DNA of 62,934 nt, filler included, from Sluysia triapertura (Eukaryota): assembly GCA_046118255.1 (NCBI GenBank). It is 5 parts of 5 records of this genome, joined end to end, with 100 filler letters (N's around TTAATTAATTAA, not from the genome) between each part and the next. Parts side by side here need not be neighbours in the genome. Positions count along the whole stretch, not along the records: positions 12,668 to 25,191 come from JBJNIA010101545.1; 4 more parts are not named here. One strand, 5' to 3'. The position numbers were made by a program, and so were the translations under genes. The notes under the pieces are model-generated. The model was not told the origin of the DNA, made no database searches, and saw nothing but the letters and a program-made list of their open reading frames with translations. Below are positions 3,130-59,086 of the stretch, one piece after another (positions within the stretch are counted from its first letter, which is position 1; each line of letters starts with the position of its first letter).

Positions 3130-3679
3130 CGTACGATAATTATTATTATCATTAGTAATATAAACGTAACATTATTTTTTAAATCTTGAGATCATATAAT
3201 CATCTACAGTAAAATATAATTTTTAAAATCTTAAATCGTTAAATCAACTAACTGAGAAAACAGTTAGTTTATGCAACTTAATTATGGGTTATTTATTCAT
3301 TTTATTTTATTTATTAATTGCTTCACTAATTTATATAGCTTTAAATTATATTAAACTATTACATTCAATTGATTTCAAAAAACTAGAATTTAATTCTAGG
3401 AAGTAAAATCTTTTCAACGATTCCGTATAAAGGAATCCATGCAAAATTAATAACTAATTTCTATTCTTTATTTAATTTTGAATTTGTAACTTAAATTATT
3501 AAGATTTTTAACGTAGCAAAGATATAAAATTCACCTCCAGATAGAAGAACTTTATTGACATATTTTCTCCAAAAACTTATCTTGCAAAAATGCAACAGCT
3601 GGTCCTAGCAGGTAAGTCCAATGCGTTGGTGAACTCACATATTTAACTTACTTTATTCTATTTGCATACTTTTCTCACA
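3130..3679 (+). mobile_element. Solo LTR related to the LTR of retroelement 1
   Basis: 3370-3679 aligns by eye to the reverse complement of 24575-24850 (CTAGAATTTAATTCTAG; CCTAGCAGGTAAGT; CGTTGGTG.ACTCACAT; TTTTCTCACA end). Left boundary approximate. Confidence 0.75.
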
Positions 3680-4462
3680 TTACCAAACTTGTCTGGATTT
3701 AATATTTCCTAATTAATTTTCTAATTAAAAAGTGAATTTATCTTTTGATCACTTAAATTGTAATTTAAATTGATAAGTGATTTCTAAATATATGTATTCT
3801 TAAATTAATTTTTCCATCTACATTTCCATCTTCTTCGACATTATCTACATTTTCGTACGTATTTTCTTTGTCTTCATTGCTTATTTTGTATGTCTAAAAA
3901 ATTTAAAGAAAATAACAATTCTTATTTTTATTTCCATTTTTGGCCTTGCTCACCATCATCGAAAAATCAATTTAATAAAAAAATCAAAATTACTTTTATA
4001 TATTTTTGATTTCTGAAATATTTTCTTTGTCGACGACTTTCCAAAAATTAAATTATTTCCTATATGTTTATATGCATTCATTTCTTCTGCCACTTCACAC
4101 TAAATAATAATTATATTGAGTACTATTAAATGATAAAATAGCATCTTTCCATAATACATGATTTTGTAACTTTCAACTTAACAAATAATAATTTATCATT
4201 AAGATCAAGATAATCAGTTTCTGATGTTTATATTTTAAATTATGTATCACCATCATCATTATTTGTTCTGTTGATGAATAAATCTCTTCGAAAGCTGTAT
4301 TTTGTAAAACAAAAATATATAATTTAGTTTTTACACAACTCATTATTTATTATTAAATATGGTTCGTTCATTTTTCGTTTATAGTTTTAACAACTTTTAC
4401 ATGTTTCTTACTCGTTTCTTACTCAAAAGTAATATAAATAAAAATATATTTGTATGATGCAG

Positions 4463-4518: not shown

Positions 4519-4616
4519 GATCCAAACACATACTATGTATGTAAAGCAGTTAAAGTTATAGATTGCTAATAGTTGTTACTAAAAAGAATATAAACAAATT
4601 AGAATGTTTAATGATG

Positions 4617-4802
4617 ATGAATAATGTATGATATAAATAATGTAAGATATCAATAATGTATGATAAAGATAATGTAAGATATCAATAATGTAAGATATAG
4701 ATAATGTAAGATATCAATAATGTATGATATATATGATGTAAGATATCAATAATGTAAGATATAGATAATGTAAGATATGAATAATGTAAAATATGAATAA
4801 TG
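4617..4802. repeat. 16-bp minisatellite (AATAATGTAAGATATC variants)
   Basis: About 11 tandem units of (A/G)ATAATGTA(A/T)GATAT(C/A/G). Confidence 0.9.
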
Positions 4803-7526
4803 TTTAGGGGATTTAGTTTATGAAATATTAACTTTATCGGACGCCGATCTAGTAATGTTTGGAATGTTACGAATTTAACAATGTTTGTATATAAACTATT
4901 GAATTTAGTTTAGAAAACTTTGTTGGTTAATAAATCTTTTAATCTTGACGTCAAATTTTATATAAACTTTATTCGTATTATTGATTCTAAATTCGTTATA
5001 AATAATACATTTAAAACCTTTACATAGTTTAATGATAATCAAGTTACAGAAATAAATTAACAAGACATTAACAACTATAAATTTTGTATTTATATTAATA
5101 TTAGGACAAAAAGTGTAAATTTTATTACTATATTTCATCTAACTAAAAATGAGAATTTAAGTTATGTAAAAAGTCAACAAAAGAAAAATTTACATTGTTG
5201 AGATACTGCACAACTCGTGAATTCCGCGCCAATATGTCTTGATCTTGAAACCATGAGTAATCGGTGAACTCAATTTTATTAGAATTCACTTCTATTTTAT
5301 TTTTGAATAAAGAAAATTCTAACAGAGTAAAAACCTTTATTATATCACATTTTGATAATCTTAGCATACGCTCTGTAAAAATATTACACAATTCGCTAGT
5401 AGTGAAATCATTGTTTTCTCCACTATTATTCTTACAAATAATCGTACAAACGTTTGTACAATCATCACTAATAACATTATCTTAATCAGTAATTTTATTC
5501 ACTTTATCTTTTTTAGATGTTTTATAGATAATATTTATTTTATAATTCAAAACATTTGATAAATCTAATAATTTGAGAATAACTATGAAAATTCTAACAA
5601 TTAATATAAAAATAAATTCAAAAAATGATGTTATCGTTAGCAGGATAGATAAGGCAAAGTCGCTACGAACATTTATTTCATCTTTCATATCTAATACAAA
5701 ATAGGATAAGTGACCACAAAACGTTGTTGTTGATTTATTATAAAAAGTCGTAAGATAGCTGAATGAAAATGTAACATGTAGTAGAACATTATCTTGAGCT
5801 ACGAATTTTAAATTATATTTACTATGAACAGTCATATAAATGTTAAGTGAAATGACCATATTCTCTTTATCACAACTGTAGCGTTTTGAAAAATCAATTG
5901 AGATGATCATAAATTTATCAGCATTATTCGTTTGACTTAATGTAGTATTACTCTTTTTCTTTTAGCATATCGTCTAAACGTAATTGAGAATCGAAAATAT
6001 AATATATTTCATTAAAACGTTAGCTCTCAGCAGCTGAACTAGTTCTTTAAAAAATAATAAACCCTTACTATATGTATACATTGGATCCAATGGCCATTCT
6101 AAAACTGAAACTATGTATTCTGAATTACATGCGCAAATTAAATAATATCGTTCTATGACATATTTGAGTTTTGCATATAATTTACTAATTATTAAACTAA
6201 TTAATAATTTAATAATTATTATTTGTTGCTATTCTCAGTTGATGCTGGAGAAGACTTTAATAAGACATCAGATATTTGATAAGTAGAATCAGATTTTGTT
6301 TCGTATAAATTTTTAATATCATTTACTGATTGACGAAGTGATACAATTAGTTCTATGTCAGAACCAAGTTAAGAGTTTTATTGTGATTCTTTATTCATTT
6401 TTACTTGCAAGTTTCGTATAATTTCTATAGCATAAAATATTTGTAATTGTGAAATTTTGACGGAGTAATTTACTTTTACAAAATTTTTTTGCAATTAAAT
6501 TTTATTTTTGTATCAGATGACCATTGATTTGTCATCCAACCAGAATTGTTTACACGAAAGGAGAATGATTATTATTCTGGTTGGATGGCCAATAAGAGTG
6601 AACCACTTGCACTGAAAATCAATAAACCAACCACCATCAGTAGTGACATTAATTAAAATGTATTGAAATGAATTAGCTACTGATAGTAGTAGTTACTGAT
6701 TTATTTAAATTAAAAATTGTGTTAATTAAAAAATGAAAATAATAATGGTGATAATAATAATAATAATAACGAAAGTGTTATTATTATTAACCCAAAAGCA
6801 TAAAATTCTACATTTCTTTGTATAACATGATCTTGCTTTGAATGCTTTAAATTTCTTACATATTTTAATAAATTTAAATGTATTTAAACTAAAGATCTTT
6901 ACGTATTTGTTGTTTTGAATGGGTTTTACGAATATAATTGACGTTTTCTGATATGGTAGCAGTTCTTCTGTTATGCAGTAAAATGTAGAACGTTAGAGTG
7001 AATTTCTGGATGATGACTAATGTTTTTGACTGATAGCGACATTTGAACATTGGGAGGTTGTGAAAAACAGATACATTGAGAAGAATGTGGTTTAGTGAAT
7101 GTAAAAGAAATAAATTATAGTACAACTCTTAGTATATTTGAAATGTTATTGTGCAATGTTAATGACATGATTTGTTTTCTTGCTGTTTTTAAGTGGTATT
7201 ATATTTTGTGCTGTTAATGGTTATGTGATGACAAATGATGAATTTAAAATGTTGTAATTGATTCGAAGGTGTCTAGTGGATAATTTCTAATGAGGTTGAA
7301 GTTTGATTGTTGTGAATATCCAGTAATATATTTTTGATGGATCTGTTGGTGTAAATTAGTGATATTGGATGTAAATGTGATTTCTATGTTAAGAAATTGT
7401 GAATGTGACTTGATTCTGGCAGATGAACTGTTTTATGAATGTAGAGGAGATGTATATATGAATATTAAAGTGTTAAATAATTAGTTTATTTTTAAAATGT
7501 AATAATAGTGAAGGTTAACCACCACA
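4800..7526 (-). mobile_element. Cargo-carrying TG...CA element, copy A (left end unresolved)
   Basis: Minus-strand start TGTGGTGGTTAAC at 7526; about 0.9 kb C/A-skewed segment homologous to 41800-42500; inverted repeat at 6533-6587; decayed ORFs at 4905-6180. Confidence 0.6.
4905..6180 (-). pseudogene. Disrupted unknown protein, homolog of ORF 46833-48137
   Basis: DPMYTYSKGLLFFK (about 6050-6090) vs TNPVISCNEGMLFFQ; INNTNKVYIKFDVKIK vs VNNLTKGYTPFDHDIK; split by stops into ORFs 5482-5910, 5143-5391 and 4905-5138. Confidence 0.55.
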
Positions 7527-8039: not shown

Positions 8040-9130
8040 TTTAAAATCCCTTAAAAACAGGTAAAATAGTAATGATAATAATAATCACGTTAACAATATT
8101 AAAATAATAAATGAAAATAACAAAATTATAAAATGTCCCTAACAAGAGCATGGATCTTCTTAATGCTGCAAATCTTTTTGTGTCTTGTGAATGTGTTGTA
8201 AAAATTAAAAATTTGTATTTACACTCTTTCATCATCCAAAAATCCCAAGTCTCACAATCAATCACTCTTTCACATAAATTATTCAAACCTCTTTGAGAAT
8301 CAAACCGACAATAACAACTTCTACAATTATATCGTACAATTATATCAAACTTCATTAGGTACAAAACATAGAAATTTGATTTATTATCAACCATCATTTC
8401 CTTTTACTCTACTCAATCTATTTTACTTAAATTACTTCTCGCATTAAAATAACAATCAATAATATTATTAACATACATAAAAATAAAGAAACTAATTTCA
8501 CTTTTTAGAATTTAATTGATTTTCGATTTTTCAAACCCAGTTTTCTAATGAAAAATGTTCTAATGAAATTGTTCTTATTCTCAAACAAACTATTTACAAA
8601 CATTTCGAACTCATTTATAGATTCTCCTCGTTCGTAGCAATCGTCGCATATTCCATTGATTACATTTGCATCACTCTACGCATAAAAAATTCAACATTCC
8701 ATAAGTAAAAATTAATTAAAATTTGCCTTTGCTCAGTATTAAGGCTTTCCTTGTCATGAACTCGGTCAAACCATACGTTCATCGAAAAATGTTTTCAAAA
8801 CAAGTACATACAGTTTCAAATTTAACGTGGCATTCCGCATTCACAAGTTATTCACAAAAACGTAATTTTTCTTAATTAAGTTAATTACGATTTTAATTAA
8901 TTAATCTATTTTTAGATTTAATTTTATTTTATGTTTCAAGGTTTTATTGAGGTTCCAAGGTTATTTAGTAATTTATAAGGTACTCAGGAGGCTCTAGATG
9001 TTGTCACCTTCACATCTTTGATTCCTTTTCTACTTCTTTATGTTAATTATTACCATATTAAACTTATCTTTATTATTTTAAACAAAAATTTTATTTTTCA
9101 AACATTTTAAAGATTTTGTCCACTTTTATA
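8040..9130 (+). repeat. Copy of 2-kb solo-LTR-like family X
   Basis: Shares CATGGATCTTC, TTCTTAATTAAGTTAATTA.GATTTTAATTAAT and TGATTCCTTTT.TACTT blocks with 36705-38160 and 51326-53325. Confidence 0.8.
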
Positions 9131-12199: not shown

Positions 12200-12567
12200 T
12201 TCATCTAAAAATATGAGATTTTCATCAACAATTCTTGAAATTTCATTTAAATAAATTTTTCTTTGATTTATCCTTTCAATGTATTTCTTTCAATTGGTAC
12301 CAATGTCAATTTTTTCTACTGAATCCCTTTTTTTAGTTTTTTTACAAATAGTAGGTTGGGAAATATTTAAATTTTCTAAACCAATGACCTTTTCTTTGAT
12401 TTCATTTTGTGTGATTGAATTGTCCATTGAAACCATGTTATATATGGCTTGATTGCATTATTGATCGCATTTTTGCGTAGACATGTAATTTTTCTTTTTT
12501 CGTTAGAAGTTGTAAAAATCTTTCCACTTTCATGATCTTTTATGATTCTCCAGACTGCCTGGCGACT
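12200..12567 (-). pseudogene. IS630/Tc1-superfamily transposase fragment (HTH to first catalytic D)
   Basis: Manual translation with frameshifts: SRQAVWRIIK...ITQNEIKEK...ISQPTICK..KKKGFSRKKLTLVPIERN...ENLIFLDE; truncated by the gap. Confidence 0.75.
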
Positions 12568-12667
12568 NNNNNNNNNNNNNNNNNNNNNNNNNNNNNNNNN
12601 NNNNNNNNNNNTTAATTAATTAANNNNNNNNNNNNNNNNNNNNNNNNNNNNNNNNNNNNNNNNNNNN
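12568..12667. other. Assembly gap/linker N44-TTAATTAATTAA-N44
   Basis: Identical 100-nt linker with six-frame stops occurs four times. Confidence 0.98.
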
Positions 12668-13028
12668 CAGTATACTAACTATTGAAATTATTAAGGTTTA
12701 AACTGATCAAGATAATAATAGTGGGTTTAATATTTAACAAGTTTTAAAGACGCAACAGTATACTTAATGATTTTATGTCGTATTTATCCTTAGTAGTTGA
12801 CTTACTTAATTGTATCTCCAGAAATTTATTTATGATCGGAATCCTTAAATCATATGTCCTAATGTTAGGCCAGAAATCTAATGTATCTCCCGTTTCAATT
12901 TATCGTAAAATAAATAGCACTTGGTAGGTTGGTAAATGAAATAATTTGATACTTGAATATTGTATAAGTCATAGGCAATATTAATTGTATTACTTACTAA
13001 CGGATTTTCTATATGAACAATATCACCA

Positions 13029-13469
13029 TCATAATGATAAATAGTCGGTGGTTATTGATGTTTTTAGAGTTGTAGAAAATCCTCGAAAAGCAAGTGGTTT
13101 AGTCAGAATTTTGTGTTTCTGTGCCAATATCAATTTTGAGTTATGTTTCATTTTATATTCGAATTCCAAAATGAGTGTAACTTGAAATAATTGATACTCA
13201 AATAAGTCTTCACATGATATTATCCAGTAAAAAACGTGTCGATTAATGTGAAAGTCGTTTTGACACCAACTTTGAAGACAAAATTTCATAGTAACATTAA
13301 CTATTTTTGCACTGCTTAGATTGATAGTAGCATAAATATCCTTTTGACCTGATTCTAGAGTAATTCGAGGTTGGTTATTCTTTGATATCCTATCATATGA
13401 GTATTTTTTGGTAACGCTTGCATATCCGAAATATATGTTAAACAGATACAAGCCACTAAAGTAGATCAT
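13029..13469 (-). CDS. Putative secreted/membrane accessory protein, unknown function
   Basis: 146 aa ORF with hydrophobic signal-like N-terminus (MIYFSGLYLFNIYFGYA), several Cys and N-glycosylation sequons; overlaps the stop of the upstream ORF. Confidence 0.4.
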   Translation of the reverse strand: MIYFSGLYLFNIYFGYASVTKKYSYDRISKNNQPRITLESGQKDIYATINLSSAKIVNVTMKFCLQSWCQNDFHINRHVFYWIISCEDLFEYQLFQVTLILEFEYKMKHNSKLILAQKHKILTKPLAFRGFSTTLKTSITTDYLSL

Positions 13470-14085
13470 AAATTCGTTAGTTGCATTCCGTTAAACGCAA
13501 ATGTATAATATCCTTCTATATCATTTTCGTATGTAAGGGAAGGTGATAGTAGTATCCCTAGTGGTGGATTAAAGTCAAATTGATGTGATGTAGTATAATG
13601 ATCATCAATGTCCTTATGAGATGATATATTCGAAAAAGAACATTTATTCATGATGAATTTTGCGATTAAAACAAATATAAAAATTAATGCAATTACTATC
13701 ATTATCGTTAATATGTAATCATTTCTAAACATGTCAAATATTGTCGGGGTGTTTTTTGTACCTCTTAAAGCAAAATGTAAACGTTCGATTTTCTTAGATG
13801 ACAAATAAATTCGTGCTATGATGTATCGTTCCTCATTAGCTAGAAAGTCCGAATATATTGTGTATGGATTTACTAAAGTATTCATACGATATTCGGAAAT
13901 AATCCAAGTGCTAAAATTGATTCGAGCCGGACGTAGACATGATAATTGAATTCGAATATTACTATACAATAACTTAACTTTCAAATCTGCATCTTAGTTA
14001 TAAAATTCGAAACACTCAAATTTGTAATGTTGACTGTTACATTGTGCAACTGAAATTATCGTTAACAATACTATGGGTAATAAAT
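13466..14085 (-). pseudogene. Putative type I membrane accessory protein (paralog 2)
   Basis: Signal-like LLPIVLLTIISVAQC upstream (one in-frame stop), then CLRPARINFSTW...EERYII...LHFALRG domain and TM segment YILTIMIVIALIFIFVLIAKF. Confidence 0.55.
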
Positions 14086-14906
14086 TATGTTTAATCTTAT
14101 GAGTTCTCGAAAGATTACTATATGCAATAACATTCACTATAGTCCCTATATTACAGCGAATAATGTCAGCATAATAAATAATCCATTTACTAGTTTTTCG
14201 GTCTGTTTTTCTAATGATACTTTCCTAAATGCAGCTGTATTAAATGTTGAATTATACAGTTCGTTTTTAAATCTAATTTCCCATTGTTAAGTGAATATTA
14301 ATGTGTCATATGACTGAATGACTGAATTGATTACCCACATTGATTTTATTGACTTTTATTACAAATTGATCACACATATGGTATTGATTTTATTTTTTGA
14401 TTTTTATTACAAAATTTTATGATTTTTGAAATAATTATTTATTCAAATTTTATCTAGGTAAGACTTTATTATATTGTTTATAATTTTTGCATGTGGTGTT
14501 GACATGGTACAAGATTCTGAATGAAAATAATACAGATAAAAAAATGAAATGATACATGAAAATATATAAAACAATACGTTAGTTTAATTTTTATATTAAA
14601 TTTTTTTAATTTTAGTTACAATATCTTATATGAATTTAGGAATAAAAAGAATTCTTAACTATGATTTTTCTTAATAAATGGATTAATTGTTTTGATCTTT
14701 TTGTATAATCCTGCTCTTTTATAGAGGCGTCTTATTTGACGATGACGTCTATTATGCTTCTGGGACTTTGACAACCCAGAAGGATAGTTAACAGGTGGTA
14801 TCTCTATTAAATGTTTTTTTACGTTTTTCCTTAAGGTATTATGGGTACGTGATTACTACTTCTTGCATTTCAATGCAGTGATCCAGTAAATATGATGGAA
14901 TTTTCT

Positions 14907-15116
14907 CTAAAGTATATAAATGTTGGAATTTCCCCTTATAAAAATGTGGATTTCCTCTACAAGTGTCCTACACAATGGGCAGTTCATATATTCTGTAGTA
15001 GTAAAATGGAAAAGATTGATTATACATTTGAAATGAAATTTATGAGAACAAGGATGTGCTTTTATGTAATGTTTATGTATAGAGTGTTGGCATATTGGAC
15101 ATCGATGGAAATACAT
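14907..15116 (-). CDS. RING-H2 (C3H2C3) zinc finger protein, putative E3 ubiquitin ligase
   Basis: CPIC-x13-CSHKFHFKC-x14-CPLC; polypyrimidine acceptor TTTTATCTTCTTTTTCAG lies 3 nt before the ATG. Confidence 0.85.
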   Translation of the reverse strand: MYFHRCPICQHSIHKHYIKAHPCSHKFHFKCIINLFHFTTTEYMNCPLCRTLVEEIHIFIRGNSNIYIL

Positions 15117-15389
15117 TGTCTGAAAAAGAAGATAAAAACATAATAAGGTAATAATATTTTAAAGTTAATTAGTTAATTAATTAACATAATAAATTATGAT
15201 CCTAATTTATGTACACGCTAAAAACTACGAGAGATATTAAACATTATTTATGTAAAGTTAGGTGACCGGTTGGACAGAAATAAAACCGTCAACATCGATC
15301 ACTCGTAACTTTTCTATATATATTGTTTAATCCTATACTTTAATTGTATGTGTCAATCTACGAGGTATTCCTATATACTTTTTATGGCT

Positions 15390-15725
15390 TCAGTCGATTC
15401 TTTAATTCCCTGTGTAGCGAAGTGAAGCTGCTTAATAATTTTAGCCTGATGTTGGATGAATATTATTATATATCTATCTTCTGATAATAAATAGTCTTTA
15501 CAAATTGTTACTGGGTATTCCGTGTTTGGTAAGACATGTATTTGTAATTCTCATATACTAAAATTGAGTCTTGCTGGGTTGATACATATATAATGTGCCT
15601 TAATATTCTTAGTTACCATAATTTGAACTTCTGTGTCGAAATTATAAAAATCCAAGTATTATGATTTGTAAATTCTCTGTGATATCCGTAATTGATATCA
15701 ATGTTAGTAAGGTGAGTAGCATCAT
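15390..15725 (-). pseudogene. Disrupted paralog 1 of the membrane accessory protein
   Basis: Manual translation MMLLTLLTLISIT...CINPARLNFSI*...NTEYPVTICKDYLLSEDRYIIIFIQHQAKIIKQLHFATQG aligns with ORF 13466-13984. Confidence 0.7.
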
Positions 15726-15814
15726 ACCCTATTATTAAATCTTATAATCCTGTTACAAGTAATAGTAATAAATAGTGAACAGCATGTAGATTATGATAAA
15801 GATTAGAAGCGCAA

Positions 15815-16312
15815 TTATAAAACATTTTGTATTTCTAACTTTTTCTTACTTACATCCTTACTTATTTTCTTACTTATATTCTTATTTAATTCGGTAGTAG
15901 TATTCGTGACTCGGTTCGTTGTAGTGGGTAATATTGTACTTACTGTTTTATTTATATACTTTTTCTTAAAAATGTTCATGAAATCTATTGTTACTGACGC
16001 CATTATCGTGGTGTATTGAATAGAGTGCTCACATTTGAAAATATCATGTATCACAGAAGGTTTCTTTATTATTAATGGCTCAAAATATATGCAATACATA
16101 TCAAAATTATAATCAGGAATCTCGTTTTTGTTATCAATTTCAGCGGTCCAAAAACTAATGAATGTATTTGAAGGAAAGAGGTTTTGTTTAATATTGGTGT
16201 AGCTTGTTAAATTTACTGAATAATTCGTCATCATAGTTGTCAATTGAAATAGAAATAGCATAAAAGTTATTATATAAAGATATTTATTATTTGCGATTGT
16301 TCTTATAAACAT
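15815..16312 (-). CDS. Putative membrane-anchored/secreted glycoprotein, unknown function
   Basis: 165 aa; hydrophobic N-terminal segment, multiple NxS/T sequons, Thr-rich stalk; hydrophobic TM-like stretch just downstream of the stop. Confidence 0.45.
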   Translation of the reverse strand: MFIRTIANNKYLYIITFMLFLFQLTTMMTNYSVNLTSYTNIKQNLFPSNTFISFWTAEIDNKNEIPDYNFDMYCIYFEPLIIKKPSVIHDIFKCEHSIQYTTIMASVTIDFMNIFKKKYINKTVSTILPTTTNRVTNTTTELNKNISKKISKDVSKKKLEIQNVL

Positions 16313-16529
16313 TATACTGCTATCACTATTGCTAATACTAATACTATTATCAGTATTATTATTATCATTATTATTATCTGATCCGATACCTGAAGTTCAA
16401 GAAACCGTGGTATCCCACCAATCGAGATTTTCCTAATTTGGCGTTGGTGATGGTGGTAATACTTGATTTAATGGAGCAATTTGATAATTTTGCGGTTGTA
16501 CTGCGGTACTGTTCTTGGCATCGGAGGTA

Positions 16530-16865
16530 AAACTAATTGTGCCTAGAGATATTTTAAGAAATCCTAATCTTCCGTGTATTACTATATTTTCTAATTTACT
16601 TAATGCATCCATTCCTAATATAATATCTTATGGGCATCTTTCCCAAACTAGTATTGTTTTAAATAGATCTACATCTAAGATTGTTAGTTGACATTGTAAT
16701 AGAATATGTGAGCCGTCTAGTGCAAATAATTGTATTCCTGCTTGTTTTAACATTAACTTCTAAAGCATTCAGTACATTATAATTAATAATAGTATTATTC
16801 GAACCTGTATCTATGACTGCTAGTACCCATCTCTGATTGAACTTAATAATCTGAACTAGATGGTT
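16530..16865 (-). pseudogene. Retropepsin-type aspartic protease (frameshifted), 3' of integrase
   Basis: Manual translation IKFNQRWVLAVIDTGSNNTII (DTG at about 16803-16811) ... CP*DIILGMDALSKL (about 16590-16630): both the catalytic and the C-terminal ILG.D motifs are present. Confidence 0.88.
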
Positions 16866-17950
16866 TGTATGTTAAAAGAAGAAGTTACACTTTTTGTAAC
16901 TTTCCTATCTCTTAAATTATATTCATTATTATGTGCCAATTTGCATCGATTTACATGCACGACAAAAGTTTCTGCATTCACATAATTAGGTTTATTTATA
17001 TATAAATTAGTGGAAGTTGTTTTCATCACTTCATAAAGTCCTTTAAATGGTTTGTGTAGTTTTGGAGAATATCCTGGTTTCGCTATTGGATAGTCTACCA
17101 ATACTTTATCTGATTTGCTTTTTGTCATAATTATCTTTATAAATTTCCTGAGTGTAATGTATTTGTAATCCAGCGCGTTTCCATATCTTGTAAATTCTCT
17201 CTCATAATAATAACATATTCAGGAGTTTCCATGTATTGAGATGAAGGTGGAATCCAGTCTAAATCTATTGGCATGTTTGAGTGTCTGCCGTACATAAGAT
17301 AGAATGGTGTAAAATTAGTAGCAGGATGTACTGAGCTTCCATACGCAAATAAGCATGGTGATATATATAAATTTCAATCTTTCTGTCTTTCGTTTACATA
17401 TGATTGTAGCATATTTATTAATATTCTATTAAATCTTTTTACCAATCCATCGGTCTGTGGCTGATACGATGATGTATATATTTTTAAAATCTTAAATATA
17501 TTTGCAACAGATATTATCGCATCACTAGTAAAATTGGTTCCCTGGTCAGTTAATAATTTTTTTGGAGTTGCGTATCTATATATATTACTTTTTCTACTAA
17601 TATTTGAGCTACAGTTTAAGCTTTTTGATTAGGTATTGGATATGTTTCTGGTCATTTTGTTAAATAATCAGCGAATATTATTATATATTTATTTCCATTT
17701 ATTGTTTCTGGCAATGGTCCCATTATATCCATTGCGGTGAATTCCGTTTAAAATAGTGGTATTGGCATAGGTCTTAATGATACAACATATAGCGCAATTC
17801 TTACACCATTCTTTAATATCTTCTTCCATTCTATCCCAATAATATTTATTTTTAATTCTTGATAATGTTTTTCTTGTTGATAAGTGTCCGCCTAATTATC
17901 CATCATGGTAGTGAATTAATAGTGGTGTTATTAAAGATTTTGGTACAATT
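16856..17950 (-). pseudogene. Integrase (HHCC, DDE core, GPY/F-like C-terminus)
   Basis: HYHDG*LGGHL...WCKNCAIC; AMDIMGPLP; LLTDQGTNF; YQPQTDGLV; TPFYLMYGR; KPFKGLYEV; stops and frameshifts present. Confidence 0.93.
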
Positions 17951-19550
17951 GTTTTCCATTCATCCTTTGAATCTCTAAAGTGTAATATACCATCTGTTAT
18001 TGATAACTTTTTAGCTTGATCTTCATTTAATAATCCCCTCACCATTGCTTCAAAAGCATATGACATTTCTTCATCTTCTCTTTGAAGTTTTATTATTTCT
18101 TTTGGCTCTTCAGATTTTCCCGAAGTTGGCATTATTTGAATAAAATTTATATTTTCTTTTTCATCATGATTTGTTAATTTTATATTTCCATCTTCATCAG
18201 TATTTGTTAATCTTGACATACAATCCGCTCCATTGTTCATTGAAAGTGGTTTATATATTATTTGTAAATCAAATTCTGCTAGCTTTGTGAACAATCTATT
18301 TAATCTACTAACTTCATCTCTATGATTGTATAAATATGTTAATGGTTTATGATCCGTATATAAAAGCACTTTCCGTCCCAATAAATAGTGTCTGAATAAT
18401 TTGCGTGCATAGACAATTGCTAAACATTCTTTTTTAATTGTTGAATAATTTAATTCAGCTTTATTTAGTCTCCTACTTGTATATGCTATTTTTTATATGC
18501 TAAATTTTATATGCTAAATTTTCTTTATTCCTTTGTCCCAGAATCGCTCCTATTGCAAAGTTACTAGCATCTGTTGTTAGTTTAAATGGTTTATTCATAT
18601 CTGGAAATATTAATACTGGTGCGGTTGTTAATCTTTTCTTTAATTCCATAAACGCTTTTGTTTGTTCTTCAGTCCATTTAAATGTTACATTCTTTTGTGT
18701 TAGCATCCTTAGTGGTCTAGCTATCTTCGCAAAATCTTTCACAAATCTTCTATAATAATTGGCTAATCCTAGAAAACTTTTAACTTTCTTAACATTATCT
18801 GGTGGTGGATATTTAACAACTTTTTCTATACTTTTAGGATTTGGTTTTATATCTGTGTGTGAAACTTTGTGTCCTAAAAAGTCAACTTGTTCTTCTGCCC
18901 ATACACATTTAGTCGGTTTAATCTTCAGTCTTGCTACTTCAAGTCTTTTGAGTGTATTATCTATATCTACAACGGAGTATCAAAATCCTTAGAAAAAATT
19001 ATTATGTCATCAATGTAAACCATTACATTCTTACAACCGGACAGTACGAAATTCATACATCTTTGAAATGTTGCCAGTGCACCTGTTAATCCAAACGGCA
19101 TTTTTTCACATTCATATAATTCATCTCCCACGAAAATGCTGTTTTTTGTTTATCTTTTTCGGCTATCTCGATTTGCCAATAACCACTCTGCAAATATTTA
19201 GCATTTTCTAGTTTATCTAACATTTAATCAATTCTTGGTAATGGAAATACATCTTTTCTTGTAATTTTGTTCAATTCTCTGAAGTCGATACAAAATCTCA
19301 TAGCTGTATCTTTTTTCTTAACTAGTAATACTGGTGACGAGAATGGAGAAAAGCTTGGTATAATTACTCCGGCCTTTTTCATTGTATCTATTTGATTTTT
19401 CATCTCTTGTTGATTGCATAATGGAATTCTGTAAGGCTTCTTTCTAATTACTTTATCTTCTATTAATGGAATTTCATGTTTCTTTATGACGGAATTTCCA
19501 ATATCATATTTATTTCTTGCAATTGCCCAAGGATATCTGTACATAATTTT
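17950..19550 (-). pseudogene. Reverse transcriptase and RNase H (Ty3/gypsy type)
   Basis: [48 protein letters not shown] (about 19003-19020), TTDASNFAIGAIL, LYTDHKPL, ADCMSR. Confidence 0.95.
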
Positions 19551-21035
19551 ATATAATGTCGTGCCAAGCTGCTTGAATATCTTCATTAGAATAGATTCCT
19601 GATTTTGGAATGTTCTTTGTAGTAGAAAATTTTAATTTTGTTTTTAATTCTGTTAAACCTATAATTTCCCGTGTTTTAACTTGACTTCGATGTGGTAGAG
19701 ATATCCAAAGATTATCATCGATTTTATATTCTGGAGCCATTACATTAGAGCAGTGTAGTGTTTTCGGTTTAAGTCTATTAGCTGGAATAATAATTCTCGT
19801 AACTGGTTCTAAATAAGTATTTATATATTACCGGTAATTCATTAGTACATTCGCTTTCTTGTCTAATTTGTACTTTCACTTCTCCCATCAACCTACCAAA
19901 TACTCCTTCTTCTGGGTTAGTTATTGCTACAGCTAATTTAGTTCTCAATATTTCTTTATTTAATTGACACTCTATCGCTATCATGGCTTGATAAACTTTT
20001 TCTAGTGACATCAGTCCTAAATGACAATAAAATTCAATTTTGTTATTAAAATACGTGTTTAATTGTAGATTCTTTGTATCTAATCCTTTTTTAACTTGTA
20101 ATATTGTCTTTTCTGATAGATATATTCCTTGATAGTTTGTTTCTATGATTTCTTGTCCACATCGAACTACTAGTTTTTTTGATAAAAAATTTTTCCATCT
20201 TCTTTCTTATTTGCCATTAGAATTGTTGGAGTTTCAATTTCATGAAGTCTTTTCCTTTCAGGTATATCTAAATTATCTTTATAAATTTGCTTTTTATTTA
20301 TTTCTTCTACTGCTAATTCATCTTCATTTTGATACATAAATCCCGAAATTAAATTAAACTTAATTTGTTTTAAGAATATTAATGAGCAGTGATATTTTTC
20401 CAATTCATATATTAGTATTGATTCACCAGAGTCACAACTTGTTTGATCGCTCCTGCAAAATGGTCTAGACATCATAGTACCTTTTTCTAAATTAAAACTT
20501 TCGTTAAAACATTTTAAACTTACTACATGTGTTTCTTGAGCTACTACGTTGTGATAAATCTTTCCTTCATATTCTATTGATCCTCTTTCGCAAGTACTGT
20601 CGATTAATACATCACCAGATGTTCTAATTTTGTAAATTATTTTCTCGTTATTTTTAATTCTTAATTTATCTCCTTTGTTTAAGCTTATGTATCCAGTTCC
20701 AAATGTATCATGACAATTGTTCGGCGATATTTTAAAGGTTTTAATATGTTCGATATATCGATAATTGAAGAGTGACTGTGATGTCCACAATACCATATTA
20801 CTGCAGATCTTTTAACTAAACATTCTCTAACTAATGTCGTAATAGATTTCCTTCTTGATAAACATTTAATACTTTCATATCTTTTATTTTGACTCTATTT
20901 GGTCTTGATTCAGGAAAATCTTCGGTATCTTATAAAGAGAACTTTCTTCCAATTTGGGGTTGGCTACAATCAAAAGCTTTTAGCATTAGTTTTATTAAAT
21001 CCGAATAATGCCAATAAAACAATTAAAAATAACAT
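19550..21035 (-). pseudogene. env-like viral fusion glycoprotein, chuvirus/Jingchuvirales-like; C-terminally truncated
   Basis: Signal peptide MLFLIVLLALFGF, KAFDC..., [65 protein letters not shown]: motif series I recall from chuviral-type glycoproteins. Confidence 0.75.
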
Positions 21036-21080
21036 ATTATTTATTGAAGTTACAAATTGAATGATCCATTTGTACTTCCC

Positions 21081-21127: not shown

Positions 21128-21223
21128 TAGTCGGGTTATCGTGTTAAGTGGTTCATTTAAAATATTCTTTAAGTCCTTTATAATATTTTTCCATCCTCCT
21201 AAGTTTTCAATTAGAGTACCTAA

Positions 21224-23100
21224 TTACTTATCAGTAAAGTTTATAACCTTGTCTATTTTTTCTTTAGTTAAGAGTGTCGCTTTATTACATTGAAATATTA
21301 TGTAAGCCATTATTATTTTAAGTCTATCTCTATTGATTCCAGCATTAATTTGTTTGTTTAATATATTTTTATATTGACCATTATCTATAAAGTCACTTAA
21401 ATCCGTATTCTTATATTTTTCTTCCATAACTTTAATTATCTTGATTAATGCAGCTTTGTATTCCTTTAATTCAGGTAAAAGTGTTTTATACTTATCAAAG
21501 TTAGAAAATTTATTAGATAATAATGCGTAAATTATAGTTTTCGTACTTAAGGTTTATTCTATATTCTTGTAAGTAATTTTGGTTAAATCAATAGGTTTTC
21601 TATGTATTGGGGTTGGTATTACTGTTTCATCATCATTATCCTTAATTTTTCTAGGTCTACCTGGTTTTCTTTTAAAAGTGTTTGTTTCTTTATCTTCAGT
21701 TTCAATATGTGGATTTTTATTTAAATCTCTTACGTAATCGGGTTTATCTTCAGTATAATCATCATTGTCATTGATTATATCTATAATTTTACTTTCATTA
21801 ACTTTATTATTATTTTTATCATAATTGTCTTCCATTAATTCTCGTAGTAATGAACGTGGAGTTCTATCTAAATCAACATCGTTGTCATCATTTATTAATT
21901 CATCCAATTTTCTTAGATCATCGGAAGGCTTAGTGTGCGCCATTATAACTGCGGAAGTCATTGATGCTTCCTCATGGTTTCCATTCATTGATGGATAACC
22001 GTAAACATTTATATAATCATTAAGTAATAGTTTTCTGTCATAAAAATATAAATCAACATCATTAATATTAGAGCCATTTGACTTGAGTAATTCTATAATA
22101 TCTTTAGTAATTGAAGTAACGGGAAGTTCCATATAATATTCAAAGAGTTATTAATAATTATACTTATTCTCATTAGTTCTTTAGGGATATGTTTTCTTTC
22201 TTTTTGTCCTAATTTTCTTAATAATTTTCTTGCCTTAATCTTATATAAACTATCTTCTTTACCTAAAATAGCTAATACTAATTTTATATCATGTCCATTT
22301 TGTATACTTAATTCCGATTTTAATAAATCATTTAGATTTTCATTTAAGTCTTTGCCATGTGTTATATTAGATAAAAATTCTTCAACTTTTTGATTAACTT
22401 CTTTAGTTTCTGGGGTATTTATTTTATCATTAGCAGTTATTATTATTGATTCCGTCTCTTCTATTTCCATATCTTCTGTTGTATTTCTTCATAATCTGTT
22501 TTATTAAATATATTTTCTACTTCTTGGTCATCACTAAGTTCATTATTTGGTTGTTTTTCTTCTTGATTTGATTCTTCTTCGGTTGAACTTGATTCTATAT
22601 TTGATTTTTCCTCTATTGGAATCGATTCTGTATTTGATTCTTCTTCTATTTCATCATTACTTTCTACTGACTTATCTAAATTTGGTTTCTTCATCTTTCC
22701 TTCCCATTTGTCAATTAATTCTTGAATACTTTTATCTTCATTTGATATTACTTCTTTTATCTATTTTATTTGTTCATACTTTCCTCTGAAGGTTGTTCTA
22801 ATAATTCTCGAATTTTAACCTGAATTGGTTGGATGGTTAATCTATTTTCTTCTTTTTCTCGTTGTTCTCTTCTTTGTTTATCTTTTTGAAATTTTAAATA
22901 TCTATCATACATATAACTCATAAAAATTTCGTTTTCTTGTTTATTTTTAAATCTATTTTTTTCACAATCCAATCCAGTGATATAGAATACTCGTAACATT
23001 GCATTCTTTTCTTCATCTGAAATTAATTTAAGATATTTATCATCTTCTTCATCACTACTCGTCTCCCTTCTTCTTGGTTGTCTTCTGCTTCTGTTATCTT
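21224..23100 (-). pseudogene. Long acidic/charged ORF2 or gag extension with AT-hook
   Basis: Contiguous frameshifted ORFs 22766-22999, 22461-22694, 22093-22470, 21554-22132 and 21224-21427; E/D/K-rich; KRKPGRPRK at about 21650-21675. Confidence 0.6.
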
Positions 23101-24091
23101 CTGATTAACTTCCTACAATCTCTTGCATAATGTCCTTTCTTATTACAGTTGTCACAGATTAATTCTCCATCGATATTTGTTTGAGTCTTATTATTATTTT
23201 CATATCTTGTTGGACTTTTACTTCTATTCCTATTGAAACTAGAACTTGGTGGCCATCTCGGTGCTGGTCTCTGTTCATAATTAGAAGCAGCATAATTACT
23301 TGCTCTATTATTTTGGAATCCTCTATTATTATTATTTCCTTTATAATTGTTTGAGCTACCCCTGTAATTGTTTGAATTACCTCAAAAATTTCTGTAATTA
23401 GCATTGCCTCTATAATTATTTGAATTTCAATTATTATTATTGCCTCTACGTGGGCTATTATGTCGGTCCTGACTGTAGTTACCATCATTATATTCTTCAT
23501 AATTTCGTGAGTTAGATTTATTATCATTATAATTATTTCTTGTTAATTTCGGGATTTTGTCTCCCTTTTCTTCATTGTCGCTTATGTAATCAATATTATT
23601 CTTATTTTTTTATGCATAATTGAGAGTTCAATGCTCCTTAATATTTTAATTACTTCTTTAAAAGGTTTTCCTTCTATTAAGTTAACATAAGTTATTAATT
23701 CAGGTCGTAATCCAGTTTTTAATTTATCTTTCAATGTTAATTCTCTGTTACCATCTGGAATTTTGGCTCTAGCAACAAGGCTTTTAAGAGCGCAAGCACA
23801 TTCATATACAGATTCATTAGGTTTTTGTACTTTAGTATTGAGCATTTTTGCATAATATTTACCCATATCATCAAGGGCTATCTCTTCTGTAAATGTATTA
23901 ACGAATTCGTTCAATGTTTGTTTATTATTATCACTTATTTCTTTTATTTTCTCGGCTTCATTCCAGCCGTTAGCTTCTGCTATACTTTCGTATTCAAGTA
24001 AGAAATCTCAGAGATCTTCTTCTGCTCCGTCAACTTTTTTCATTTCAAGTAAAGACATTATTGGATGCATTTCTCTGTCTAATTGTGCCAT
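23100..24091 (-). pseudogene. gag (capsid-like plus CCHC zinc knuckle)
   Basis: MAQLD...DFLLEYESIAEANGW; KVQKPNESVYE...LKTGLRPEL; CDNCNKKGHYARDC at about 23115-23157. Confidence 0.9.
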
Positions 24092-24548
24092 ATATTCTTT
24101 AAATTCATTAGGTAAAACCATATAATTCCTTAATTTTGATCTGTAATCTTCTGAAAAAACAATTTGCTTATCTATTTTTCTTAAAGTTTACTAAATCTAT
24201 CAATAATCAACTTAGGGAGTAATAATTTTACATAAATTTATCTTAGTCTTAATACAATTATTCCAAAAATGCTTAATTCTTAATTTTAATTCTCAAATTA
24301 ATCTCTACTTAAATAATAATCCTTAAATTCTTCTTAACTACTTAATTCTTATATGAGTTATTGCAAAATTCCTTTAAATTAGTTAATTCGCCTTAAATTC
24401 TTCTTAATTCCTCTAAAAATCTTATTTCTTTCTTATATTATTTCGATACTGGTCCTCAAATTCAATTCTATAGCAAAATTCTTCTTAATCAGAATTCCTA
24501 AAAATCTTATATCTTATACTTATTTATGTTATTTATATTGTTGCAATT

Positions 24549-24564
24549 GCTCGTCTGAGCACCA
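24549..24564 (-). promoter_or_regulatory. Putative primer binding site TGGTGCTCAGACGAGC
   Basis: TGG-starting GC-rich tract 10 nt downstream of the LTR end (...CTCACA) and upstream of gag. Confidence 0.7.
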
Positions 24565-24574
24565 GTTTATTCTA

Positions 24575-25191
24575 TGTGAGAAAAGTGAAGCAAATAGAAT
24601 AGAATATAAGTATGTGAGTCCACCAACGTGCTGTACTTACCTGCTAGGGCCAGACGTTGGATTTCTTATAAGTGTCAAAGAAAAATTTAGTTTTTTCGTT
24701 AATGTCTCTTGTCTGAAGGTAGATATTTTAAAGATTTTAATTTGAGTTATTAAATAATTTGAGTTAGTTATATATTTTACGAATGATTTCCTTGTATGGA
24801 ATCAATAAATGAAAATTTACTTTCTAGAATTAAATTCTAGATTTTTTGAAAACTGTAAATACTGGTATTTTAATAGATTCTATAACTATTCAAGTTGAAA
24901 AGATCTTAATACGAAAAATTCCTTTATTATGCACAAAAATGTAAAAATTATACAAATACAGTTGATAATAATGATAAAAAAATTTACTTTAATTAACTAT
25001 TGTTAGTCAATTATCCTTAATTCAAGTTTATACATAATTTATGCATTGCGTTTATGCATTGCGGACAAATGGTTGGTAATTAGTCTATGTAAATATTATA
25101 AAATAATTAATATGATTATGTTGGGGTAAAAGGCCTAAAAAGTTCCAAGTAGTATAATTGAATATATTGAAAATGAAATTGTTAGACGGGG
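24575..25191 (-). repeat. 5' LTR of retroelement 1 (distal end uncertain)
   Basis: Ends in CA next to the PBS; homologous to the solo copy at 3130-3679; contains CAG|GTAAGT at 24635-24643. Confidence 0.75.
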
Positions 25192-25291
25192 NNNNNNNNN
25201 NNNNNNNNNNNNNNNNNNNNNNNNNNNNNNNNNNNTTAATTAATTAANNNNNNNNNNNNNNNNNNNNNNNNNNNNNNNNNNNNNNNNNNNN
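25192..25291. other. Assembly gap/linker
   Basis: N44-TTAATTAATTAA-N44. Confidence 0.98.
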
Positions 25292-40397: not shown

Positions 40398-40399
40398 AT

Positions 40400-54499: not shown

Positions 54500-57341
54500 A
54501 GCTCTAACAGTTATAACCCAGCCACTGTCTGACCAAAAGTTAAAAATGTTCCCCATATCATTTTCATTTCATATCGTTTTCCAAATAACCCGCTGATAAT
54601 AACCTTTCATAATTTGGTTTGTCGCCTGCATCTCCTATGGAAGTTTCTACTATTTCAGTCAAAATTCTGTTATAAATATTTTCTAGCATCATCCATAGCT
54701 TTTTTATCATATAGATTACTCTTCATTAAATCCTGAATGCAATCAAAGTGTAGGTTGTTTTGTAAATTTGTAATTTCTAGATTTCTCGGTGGCGATTTGG
54801 GTATCAATGATGGAACGACGACCCATGTTGTCTCTGATAATTTATATGCTGGAGCAAATAAAGGTGAACATTTAATTTTAAATGCTTTTGATATAACCAG
54901 TAGTAATAATCTTGTAACCTGTTCCATATAAATAACTTCATTTTTATAAATAACTGGTTATTATGAGTACATTCGTTAGTACAATTAAGATAAACATAAA
55001 CTTTTTTACAAGCGAAAGTTTGTAATAATTCATCCATTAGTCTACTAAAAATTATTTTACCTAATTGAATCTGGAGTGGCCATACTAAGATTAGTCACAA
55101 TCAGTGTCATTTTTGTATGTATTATTTCACAGTTTAGTTTACAATCATTAATAATTATTTCTCTATAAAGATCTTCTATTTGCCTTAATTGATGATGATA
55201 TGAAAAGTCCGCTTTATTGTTAAAATAAATTAACATCCTTATGCAACAAATGAAAATTAGACTGCTTTCCTTTACTTTTAATTACAAATATTTTATCATA
55301 ATTAATAATGTAAACTAACGGACCGCATTTTTTAATCTTACATTATCTTATTAACCTAATCTCAATTAACACAACTTGTGTATTTGTTTCTACTAATGTT
55401 TCTTCTTTATATTTTAAATTTTTACATTATTATCATTATTCATAATGTTGATGTTGATATTATTTTTGTTTTGAATGTATTTGTTGAATCACACTGAATA
55501 TATTTATTGATTTTTTATAGTATGAAATATTTATTTGTTGATTTTCAATATTAATTCGGTTTGGATTTATAATTGGAAAATTATAATTTTATGTGAGTAA
55601 TTTATTTTTATTATTAACAGAAATTATAAAATTAAAAAATTATTGTTAAACTGAATTTATAAAATCAGAGAATTAATAGAAATTTTAAAATTAAAATATA
55701 TTAAACAGTATCTAATTGCAGAATTTATAAAAATTAAAATTTCAATAATAATTTGTTTTAAAGAACCGTCCAAGGTCAAACTTAAATTAATATATAAAGA
55801 TGACATTTTCGTATAAAACTACTTAACTTTTAATTTGAACAAAACAATTTTTAATTGTATCTTTCAAAAAATTCGTGGAGCTGACCATTGGACGTTACTT
55901 ATAGAGAAATAACATTGCAATTAATTATTCGTTAGTTTGTTTTTGATAAGTTAGTACCTTTAAGTGTGCACCGTAAAATCAATGTAAATTATCTATATAC
56001 ATTTGCAGAACCATTTACAATTTCTTTCGTAAAATAATTACTAAAATTGCTTTTTTATATTATTGCATGATCTTTCAGTATTTTAATATTTACCTTTTGC
56101 GTTATATTATAAACTTTCGTATTAAAGTTTTATTGTTAATAACGAATTTCATTATCAGTTCTGTTTAAAATAATTGTAAGTAAATTTTACAATTTTAAAA
56201 TATTAAAATCTGTACTTATAGCATATTTCACCGATATTTATCGGAAAGTGTAAATTCACTTAATATAAATCCTATTTAAAAGGATTTTCGTAAAATACCA
56301 ATTATTAAATAACCTTTTCTCAGATTAATTTTAGATGAAGATTAATTTACATTTAATTTAAATATAATTAATTTAAGATTAATAATATTTAAAGGATTCT
56401 TGTAAAATCACAGTTTATTAACCCTCATTAAGAGAGATAGTCAATTATTCCATTAAACTTTAATGAAATACATTAACTTACTAAGAACCAAGGAATAAAT
56501 TTGACTACGAAGCTTATAAATCTAATAAACAAATTTATTGACCTCCTATAGTTATCTTGTTTTAAGATACGTTGGTGAACTCACATTCACATCTTTATTC
56601 TGAGAAAAATAAAATAAAAACCTCGCAATAACATCATGAGCAGATGAAAATATTTTTCCTTTAATTGTATCAATAATGACTGTTTTAAGGTAAACTAGAC
56701 TACATTCACGATTTCCAAATCAAAAACAATAGTATATTTTCCACCGAAACTTGTTTTTAGTTCTAATTTGCAAAATGATCTTTCTAGCATAGCTTTTGTA
56801 TTCGGGTCAAATGCTACTTCAGTATTCTTAATTTCAGTAGTGTAAGTATCAATAACTAATGCTTTTCGAATCTTATTATGACAAAATTTTCCACATTCGC
56901 GGGTATCTTCATACAACAAACTTCCTACTACAAATATTTCTTCTTATACTGTAATACCTGGTTTTGCTTTCAGAATTATTTTAGAGTCCATTTTACTTCA
57001 TGAGTGTGAAAAGCATTATAACAATTTTTTAGTGTAATTTCAAGATATTCTTCTATTATAGACTATTTAATCAATGAAATATGGCTATTATATCAACACC
57101 ATCTAATATATCTCTTTCTAGAGACTGCACATTCATATGCTTTAATATAAATATATCCTCTTTCTTAATAAATATGATAAATCTGATCGTATTGTTTAAT
57201 AAATTTATTTGGATATGCATCAGGACATTTTTCTACATCCATTAATGAAAATTTTGCTCCGAGTGTTGTATTTTCACAATCAAATGCCTTAATAGATTGT
57301 GCAACAGGCAATACTAAAATTGTCATAAAATGTGCCAACAT
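54500..57341 (-). pseudogene. Chuvirus-like fusion glycoprotein of element 2 (interrupted at 55446-56633)
   Basis: MLAHFMTILVLPVAQSIKAFDCENTTLGAKFSLMDVEKCP; ECAVSRKRYIRWC*YNSHIS; DCKLNCEII; CKKVYVYLNCTNEC; KCSPLFAPAYKLSETTW; SNLYDKKAMDDAR; WGTFLTFGQTVAG. Confidence 0.78.
55446..56633 (+). mobile_element. Solo-LTR-like insertion in the glycoprotein gene
   Basis: TGTTG...ATAACA termini; flanks TCATAA/TCATGA; contains CGTTGGTGAACTCACAT, also found in the solo LTR at about 3624. Confidence 0.6.
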
Positions 57342-58209
57342 TGTATTCGTCTCTTATAACCGTTGGTTCAATTTTGACATTTTTATCTATGTTTTATATT
57401 ATTGTCAATACCGTTTAAATTGGCATCAACTTTACTTTCCGCTTTGACAATACTAATATTTTTTTGAAAACCACTTGATTTTACGTTAGATATATTATTT
57501 ATCTGATTGTGCTTAGTAACCACACTCAATTATATTTTCATTGTCATTAATATAATCATTTTTTAATACTAATATTATATCACTATTTAATAAGTTGAAT
57601 AACGTAAGAGTAAGAGAAATTAATTCTTTATCTTAATTCTTTATTTATTGGAACCTCTACCGCATGATTATTATCTTCATATGAAAGTATAAGAGGTAAT
57701 GTTGTCTTATTTTTATTCAACCAATATCTTTCTACTTCAAGTAAACGTTATGAATGTAAACAGTACGATTTAGAAAAATTCACGTTATTCTGTAAAAATT
57801 ATTCACTATTACTTATAGCATCAATTGGTACTATGTTTAGATACTCGAATGTGTCTCCAATATTCGTGTGCTTATTATTAATTAATTCAGTAATAACTTT
57901 AACGTCATCAATATTCTCGATATGTACTTCATCATTAATTACTTCTTGTTCTTTTTCATTCTGATTAATGTAATCAGAAGATAATACAAAACGATTGCGC
58001 TAGTCAATCTTGTCATCTTGAGGTACTTCCTCCTTTAAAATTTTCTTTTGTAATTTTAAAGTCATTTCCTCTATTACTTATTTTAAATTTCTATTTTCTT
58101 CATTAATTGAATCCACTTGGATACACAATACTTGAGAAACTTGACTTTTACCACGTTTTTGATTATTTTTGTTTCCTGAATTACTTCTGCTTCTATCTTT
58201 ATTAGCACG

Positions 58210-59014
58210 TAAATTTCGACACCAAAAATTATATTTATTATGGCCTGTCTTATTTCAAATTGTACATGATTCACTTGTAAATCGTACTTCATTTTGTTGC
58301 CTTAGACTATTATGCTGATTTCGCCTGTTATATCTAATAAACTGTGTATTCTGTCGAAAAAATTTTAACATTTATATCATTGTTAAAATGTATATAATCA
58401 GAAAAATTATTATACTTAAAATTACTACGATTGTTAGAAAATTTATTCATTTGTCCATCTATATTTGTTCGAATTATAGGTTCAATAGCCATCACATTGG
58501 ACTGGAGCGAAATTCCTGTTACACTCTCTATATTTGAATTGATCATCTAAATTAGTTAAATCTAATATCAAAAGTTGTGTCATTATTGGTTTCTTACATA
58601 CATCAATACATTTTTCAGTAATTAACTCATTTTTCTGCTAATGAGTAAAATGGGATATGCCTTATTTGCTAATCGTTTTAAGTCAAATAAAAATTGTGTG
58701 ACGGTTTCTTTACTATTTTGTATCTTGTTTCGAAAGTTTTTAAAATTAACTAATTTAGAGTCTCTAAGAAAAATTGACTTCTAAATTTTTTCAAGCATTT
58801 TTATTTTCGTCCTAGATATTTAAGTAAGCCTCAATCGATTTTCCTTTTAAATAGGGTGAAAAGTCTACATTGAGCATCCTCATCCCAGCCAAAGTTGATA
58901 TTGATTCATAAAATTTGTTAAAGCTTCTGGATTACCGTCGAAAGATTCCAATAGAAGAACGAAAGATCTCATAGATTCAGTATTCATTTCCTTTTTAATT
59001 CCAGTCTGTTGCAT
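58210..59014 (-). pseudogene. gag of element 2
   Basis: ESFDGNPE..F...GW; RNKIQNSKETVTQF..DLKRLANKAYP; degenerate knuckle CTI*NKTGHNKYNF at about 58225-58270. Confidence 0.8.
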
Positions 59015-59086
59015 AAAATTTTAAATCTTAAATTATAAACTTATTTATTGTTTAAAAATAAATCTATATAATAATAATGAAACTTT

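Follow-up and report, generated by a model that had tools for sequence, protein, structure and literature searches.

A glycoprotein gene lying between gag and pol raises two questions: whether it belongs to the retroelement around it, and whether its place next to the reverse transcriptase (RT) is the design of a lineage or an accident of one copy. At such a locus in Sluysia triapertura (GCA_046118255.1), an earlier note made from the sequence had proposed an undescribed, potentially infectious Ty3/gypsy family with a chuvirus-like class III fusogen. We analyzed the whole stretch of 62,934 nucleotides, referred to as the window. Very probably, the locus is a dead, internally deleted Ty3/gypsy copy with the order gag-glycoprotein-pol. 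Its glycoprotein is a predicted gB-type class III fusogen, and its likely place is within the flatworm GAG-ENV-POL (Burro-related) errantivirus group.

Organization of the element

The window consists of five joined contigs, with 100-nt gaps at 12568-12667, 25192-25291, 36101-36200, and 48792-48891 and a 12-nt linker in the middle of the gaps. A minus-strand retroelement of the Ty3/gypsy type (element 1), about 12 kb long, nearly fills the contig at 12668-25191 and has no N gap inside. From 5' to 3', its order is an LTR-like end, a TGG site, gag, a CCHC knuckle, an accessory region, env, RT, RNase H, integrase, a protease, and the 3' ORFs (Table 1). The GC content is about 25%. As stated in the earlier note, a glycoprotein with a putative signal peptide lies after gag and before RT, on the same strand and in one contig; the four motifs cited for it were recovered on the minus strand within 19550-21035, in different frames.

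Table 1. Features of the window, with positions counted along the whole stretch
Feature	Position	Strand	Evidence
Solo copy of the LTR-like sequence	3373..3680	+	match to 24575..24851
LTR-like 5' end, tentative, may reach further	24575..24851	-	78-82% identity to the inverted copy at 3373-3680
Primer-binding-site-like sequence, begins TGG	24553..24564	-	seen in sequence
gag capsid-like region, broken	23585..24187	-	N-terminal gag of P0082, E 2e-6; L002, pairwise E 2e-5
N/R/G-rich linker and CCHC zinc knuckle	23097..23381	-	PF00098, E 1.8e-5
Accessory region ("ORF2"), charged, with AT-hook-like KRKPGRPRK motif	21557..23096	-	sequence
Putative Bcl-2-like (BH1/BH2) remnant, directly before env	21152..21370	-	L001 at the same position, 36% over 59 aa, pairwise E 5e-7
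env: signal-like stretch and predicted gB-type class III ectodomain, frameshifted, C-terminally truncated	19567..21056	-	PF24664; relatives
Junction of the internal deletion, with loss of the env stalk end, TM anchor, protease(s), and dUTPase-like region	19556..19567	-	tblastn of intact relatives jumps here
RT and RNase H, broken	17899..19556	-	PF00078, PF17917, PF17919; RT tree
Integrase: H2C2 zinc finger, core, C-terminal module; broken	16901..17895	-	PF17921, E 2e-14; PF00665; collinear with P0110
Aspartic protease after integrase, broken	16580..16850	-	PF13975, E 5e-4
3' ORF: hydrophobic leader, Thr-rich stretch, TM-like end	15756..16396	-	sequence, hydropathy
RING finger ORF	14910..15158	-	PF13639, E 1e-7
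Second signal-peptide/TM ORF	13469..14224	-	TM at 13717-13661
Further 3' ORF	13032..13490	-	no Pfam match; missed by profile of relatives' tails
Second, more decayed element, gag-X-env-RT-RH-IN start, split by two insertions	50764..59020	-	PF24664, E 3e-9 and 7.5e-4; RT, RH, IN matches

RT, RNase H, and integrase follow each other in the order of Ty3/gypsy (Metaviridae) elements, with an H2C2 integrase, and gag with a CCHC knuckle lies upstream of pol. A profile of the relatives had Ty3-G Gag-Pol as its best PDB sequence match (E 1e-44). Pao families were absent from the Pfam set of the window element and its relatives, and the pol set was gypsy-type, so the element is not BEL/Pao. The earlier placement in a Ty3/gypsy lineage with gag-env-pol order was thus borne out by the Pfam set, by collinear relatives, and by an RT tree that groups the element with env carriers (see below). 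At the 5' end, the LTR-like similarity stops just ahead of the primer-binding-site-like sequence, for which no matching tRNA was found in the window. A 3' LTR partner was sought in 12670-16400, close to the gap ending at 12667, and was not found, nor was a target-site duplication.

In a Pfam scan of element 1 covering 28 ORF pieces, no gag family matched. About 2 kb of accessory sequence is present, and an AT-hook-like motif of a similar kind precedes env in four relatives (P0074, P0078, P0079, and P0107). A ubiquitin-like domain suspected by eye in element 1 was unsupported, with a score reached by 70 of 150 shuffles and no Pfam match; a ubiquitin-like profile does match element 2, described below (iE 3e-5), and the metagenome locus L002 has a weak Pfam ubiquitin match. 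For the Bcl-2-like piece, the score was reached by 0 of 150 shuffles, yet the HH probability was 2.6%, and on its own the piece had no match among Bcl-2 entries of Pfam, PDB, and Atlas. The same region of the relative P0075 matched Pfam Bcl-2 (E 0.001) and Bcl-xL (E 0.01). That a Bcl-2-like remnant precedes env is supported only transitively, via L001 and P0075.

The second element is collinear with P0080 and falls in the same RT clade as element 1. It has no protease between env and RT; the gap there is about 350 nt of AT-rich filler, with a breakpoint different from that of element 1. It is split by insertions at 51370-53330 and about 55410-56640, the first being a repetitive sequence also present near 8400-9100, 36200-37800, and 60400. 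About 3 kb beyond its gag end lies a TRAF/MATH domain frame (62231-62719, plus strand, E 5e-18); Burro elements have been reported with MATH.

Elsewhere in the window, an Ig-like frame followed by an adenylate/guanylate cyclase frame was seen at 39981-41179 (minus strand). The adenylate cyclase exon, the single host-type gene compared, gave two matches, the named one being from a tapeworm (51%). Taken together with the GC content and the likeness, judged by eye, of env to Schmidtea rows, this points to a flatworm host, probably a planarian. At 46836-48167 (minus strand), a 444-aa stop-free frame with an internal duplicated peptide matched mRNA cap guanine-N7 methyltransferase (E 3e-16). A tandem array with a 16-nt period occupies 4585-4835. 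Two short frames beside N gaps, at 35889-36152 and 12379-12600 (minus strand), resemble Tc1/mariner transposase.

The glycoprotein and its relatives

Four of the 28 pieces scanned, all from the env region, matched PF24664 (Monjiviricetes_fusion) collinearly, at profile positions 57-95 (E 8e-6), 99-207 (E 1.5e-6), 269-404 (E 8e-12), and 409-487 (E 2e-9) of 653. The last quarter of the profile is missing from the window env. A hydrophobic signal-like stretch was found at 21056-21000, in a frame that differs from that of the mature env start. It flanks the ectodomain on one side, and the TM segment on the other side falls in the deleted part; both flanks are seen in relatives. A word-index search with the env piece at 20173-20811 retained 0 of 2421 candidates.

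The relative P0075 is collinear with the window env (E 3e-75), in which 12 of the 14 aligned cysteines of P0075 are kept. We therefore describe the fold from an AlphaFold2 model of this intact relative, not of the window protein, built on an 18-row alignment (pLDDT 70.8, pTM 0.46). The N-terminal half of the model is rich in beta structure; a central helix spans 48 residues, and a TM helix lies at the C terminus. When it was used in Foldseek, chuvirus and related mononegavirus glycoproteins ranked first (Tacheng tick virus 4, E 4e-40), and herpesvirus gB ranked first among solved structures (E 4e-14, TM about 0.3); TM-scores across the structural matches were 0.3-0.5. The chuvirus-like class III fusogen of the earlier note thus held up, and both chuvirus glycoproteins and herpesvirus gB were matched with P0075 in place of the repaired window protein. 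Because the fold was modelled on P0075, with which the window env is collinear, the assignment of the latter to gB-type class III fusogens is a prediction carried over by homology. The mosquito protein P0104 is 22% identical to P0075.

An HMMER search of 1.84 billion proteins with one unbroken env piece (E<=1e-3) gave 35 relatives, and PF24664 was found in 14 of the 15 scanned. Env and RT occurred in the same protein in seven database proteins (1251-4844 aa) and two metagenome loci (ORFs of 3426 and 3703 aa). All nine (P0074, P0080, P0083, P0100, P0101, P0107, P0110, L001, and L002) run in one ORF from env through at least one protease to RT, with one to five protease domains in between; because these relatives were found with env as the query, the count of nine out of nine is partly ascertainment and describes a layout rather than a frequency among RT relatives. 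The single frame of the relatives contains gag, accessory domains, a leader, the env ectodomain, a TM segment, proteases, RT, RNase H, integrase, and often a tail made of a leader, an ectodomain, and a TM segment. Gag or CCHC was found in the env and RT frame in P0101 and L002 and in frame with env in P0079, P0082, and P0091. P0080 (HBK71150.1) is filed as a Flavobacteriaceae MAG protein and is likely animal DNA in a bacterial bin.

Phylogenies of the separate domains were then compared; named Burro and Smed sequences are not among their rows. For the RT C terminus (74 rows, coverage filtered from 76 matches and 2 window pieces), the tree grouped both window elements with the env carriers P0074, P0080, P0083, P0107, and P0110 and with P0108 (98/94), a placement that speaks against an independent insertion of env. 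The tree of the RT N terminus, made by a quick method, agreed with only 82% support. In the RNase H tree (82 rows, 96 columns), the element had no clear placement, its long branch lying outside the env clade. Among the 25 rows of the env tree, the window env was placed with the envs of polyproteins, apart from the free virus-like glycoproteins P0103-P0106 (100% SH-aLRT).

These layouts suggest how an intact member of the family might work. The ribosome would make one polyprotein, whose internal signal sequence would direct env to the ER lumen, and signal peptidase could free Gag and the accessory domains. The TM segment of env would stop the transfer, returning protease and Pol to the cytosol, and the element's own proteases would cut them free there. 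Env trimers might then cover capsids as they bud, so that enveloped particles could pass from cell to cell.

Proteases, 3' ORFs, and the env/RT junction

The protease after the integrase is the sole protease-profile match among 1770 window pieces, and its score was reached by 0 of 60 shuffles. Among 30 domains compared with it, the pre-RT proteases of P0080, P0083, and P0110 gave the highest scores. A protease at a similar spacing was present in two of the seven relatives extending past the integrase (P0074 and P0107). P0107 (4844 aa) contains seven protease domains in one ORF; in this polyprotein, P0079, and P0074, the number of aspartic protease domains ranges from 3 to 7, and ankyrin and C2H2 zinc fingers are also present. 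No paper describing extra or post-integrase proteases was found, and figures and Repbase entries may already show such domains.

P0074, P0080, P0107, and P0110 end in a leader-ectodomain-TM tail, a layout shared by the window ORF directly after the protease (Table 1). No significant sequence match was found between the window 3' ORFs and the post-integrase tails of the relatives. One window 3' ORF of this layout ends in T-N-L, and two of the four tails of the relatives end in T-x-V; we take both to fit the class I PDZ-binding pattern. A decayed paralogue of the second signal-peptide/TM ORF was found at 15374-15658 (40% identity, E 1e-16). In L001 (10617-12104) and L002 (12085-13470), a separate downstream ORF matches DEDDh/RNase_T exonuclease (E 1e-5 and 1e-3, respectively). 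One speculative reading, which we regard as possible though rather doubtful, is that the lineage repeatedly duplicated its aspartic protease and kept one behind the integrase, before the second signal-peptide/TM protein, the extra proteases acting as specialized cutters to free Pol from a polyprotein with a membrane tether at each end. If true, LTR retroelements would have a processing scheme not described before, together with a second surface protein of a receptor-like kind.

The env homology stops at 19567, and the RT homology begins at 19556. Between these points, the relatives have about 405 (P0083), 440 (P0080), 640 (P0110), 730 (P0074), or 1725 (P0107) residues, an interval that includes the TM anchor and proteases. 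Env adjoins RT in the window because a deletion took the env anchor, the protease(s), and a dUTPase-like region, which are present at this place in all nine intact relatives. The earlier description of the glycoprotein as lying directly before RT is thus accurate for this copy, but the adjacency is a product of the deletion, since relatives carry the intervening residues. In the public run X1, 36,541 contigs fell on the element at 80-100% identity, across all 30 bins, and none spanned the whole element; the RING ORF was covered like the rest, at a lower depth. At the join, the summed depth falls, loose ends of 10 contigs lie at 19551 and of 2 contigs at 19555, and none of the 8 longest X1 pieces listed bridges it. 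As junction evidence this is weak, with loose ends at 109 places, an uneven depth, and a run that is possibly the window's own source; the pattern fits, weakly, a copy-specific deletion.

Three other accounts of the locus were weighed. The closest competitor, itself quite unlikely, is a distinct subfamily with the true order gag-env-RT-RH-IN-PR, in which the protease moved behind the integrase and env stands next to RT by design. The only protease of the window does lie after the integrase and resembles pre-RT proteases most, and element 2 likewise lacks one between env and RT. However, the env is cut before the TM anchor that a working gene needs, every one of the nine intact relatives keeps a protease between env and RT, and the post-integrase protease of P0074 and P0107 is additional, not a replacement. 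The gap in element 2 is filler with another breakpoint, and the loose X1 ends and the unbridged join also count, weakly, against this account. It is still less probable that collapsed high-copy repeats were assembled into a chimera, so that the junction and the 3' ORFs did not come from one molecule. The scaffold is fragmented with N gaps and no X1 contig spans the element, but both sides of the join are collinear with intact relatives; because of this collinearity, a chimera would leave the family assignment unchanged.

Least probable of all is the independent insertion, into an env-less gypsy copy, of an env fragment or of an endogenous glycoprotein gene like that of chuviruses. The abrupt env/RT join would suit such an event, and PF24664 was found in 0 of 71 proteins retrieved with the RNase H piece, a set of 348-2000 aa that excludes most such polyproteins. 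Against it, env and RT are nearest to the same polyproteins, and L001 carries a match to the putative Bcl-2-like remnant in the corresponding place before env. Because of the placement in the RT and env trees and the same order in the second element, an independent insertion is unlikely, and env appears to be native to the lineage.

In the favored reading, a deletion would have fused the env ectodomain to RT in a copy of a gag-env-pol element, while frameshifts and stops built up. Comparison with P0110 showed 4 frame changes and 1 stop in env and 7 frame changes and 6 stops in pol; the copy lacks an intact set of gag, env, and pol ORFs. A membrane-anchored env cannot be made from this copy, which makes no functional env or pol. 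With its frameshifts, its stops, and an env without an anchor, the copy is not infectious, and the suggestion of a potentially infectious element fails for it.

Comparison with known elements

An env between gag and pol is already on record. According to the available text of PMC6431247, the env of the planarian Burro/GYPSM1 follows BCL2 and precedes protease in one frame, is described there as the first example of an env gene located between gag and pol, and matches arthropod and fish mononegavirus glycoproteins; decayed Burro fragments occur in Dugesia japonica. That article (Arkhipova & Yushenova 2019) cites Grohme 2018 and Jurka 2007 for Burro-1/GYPSM1 and Burro-2 to -4. BURRO1 is abundant and up-regulated on smedwi-2 RNAi, as far as the accessible part of PMC8532177 goes. 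In the portion available of Chary & Hayashi (eLife 2026, PMC13524379), GAG-ENV-POL elements of the HSV/gB type are reported in Nematoda, Bryozoa, and Platyhelminthes, with six Schmidtea families, and do not form one clade. The family is therefore not undescribed, as had been claimed, these two sources (PMC6431247 and PMC13524379) having published the arrangement. The gag-env-pol layout with a gB-type env is already published for flatworm elements, and the window copy adds a dead member.

The window copy itself matters little, being a further dead representative of a flatworm-type family that is high-copy and already published. The family is of real interest for its membrane-spanning gag-env-pol polyprotein with a class III fusogen. 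What the window contributes are hints of extra proteases and of membrane proteins at the 3' end, for which the intact relatives are better material. Nematode NERVs (reportedly Sacco et al. 2022) are said to have env before pol in a metavirus. They share this arrangement with the window element; their hosts are nematodes, whereas the host gene compared here points to a flatworm.

With Smed_errantivirus_1-6 (C1a type), as presented in the available text of PMC13524379, the window element has in common the gag-env-pol order, a Ty3/gypsy pol, a gB-type env, and membership in a multi-copy family, whereas the window copy is broken and deleted. Env lies between gag and pol in both window elements, as in the GAG-ENV-POL HSV/gB errantiviruses, and the gB-type class III fold is predicted through the P0075 model. 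By eye only, the Schmidtea C1a env rows seen and the window env are alike in the domain I-II motifs and in an insertion before the last domain-II cysteine. Figures aside, the main text of that paper, in its available part, names protease once and does not mention proteases after the integrase, RING, or membrane ORFs at the 3' end. The mosquito BEL/Pao elements with a chuvirus-like glycoprotein (Dezordi et al. 2020, cited in the same available text) have an env of the same broad family, but the window pol is Ty3/gypsy and the window env stands apart from P0103-P0106. Burro elements, as far as the available text of PMC6431247 describes them, are alike in the accessory domains and in an env that resembles mononegavirus glycoproteins. 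In Burro this env stands in frame between a BCL2-like domain and protease, and the Bcl-2-like remnant of the window would be the counterpart of the former. They differ in having more than 25 kb of internal sequence, in contrast to about 12 kb for the window element, in which no MATH, BIR, ankyrin, or Smc Pfam matches and one CCHC knuckle were found (28 pieces). Because of its size and the absence of these four domains, the window element is a smaller relative and not one of Burro-1 to -4.
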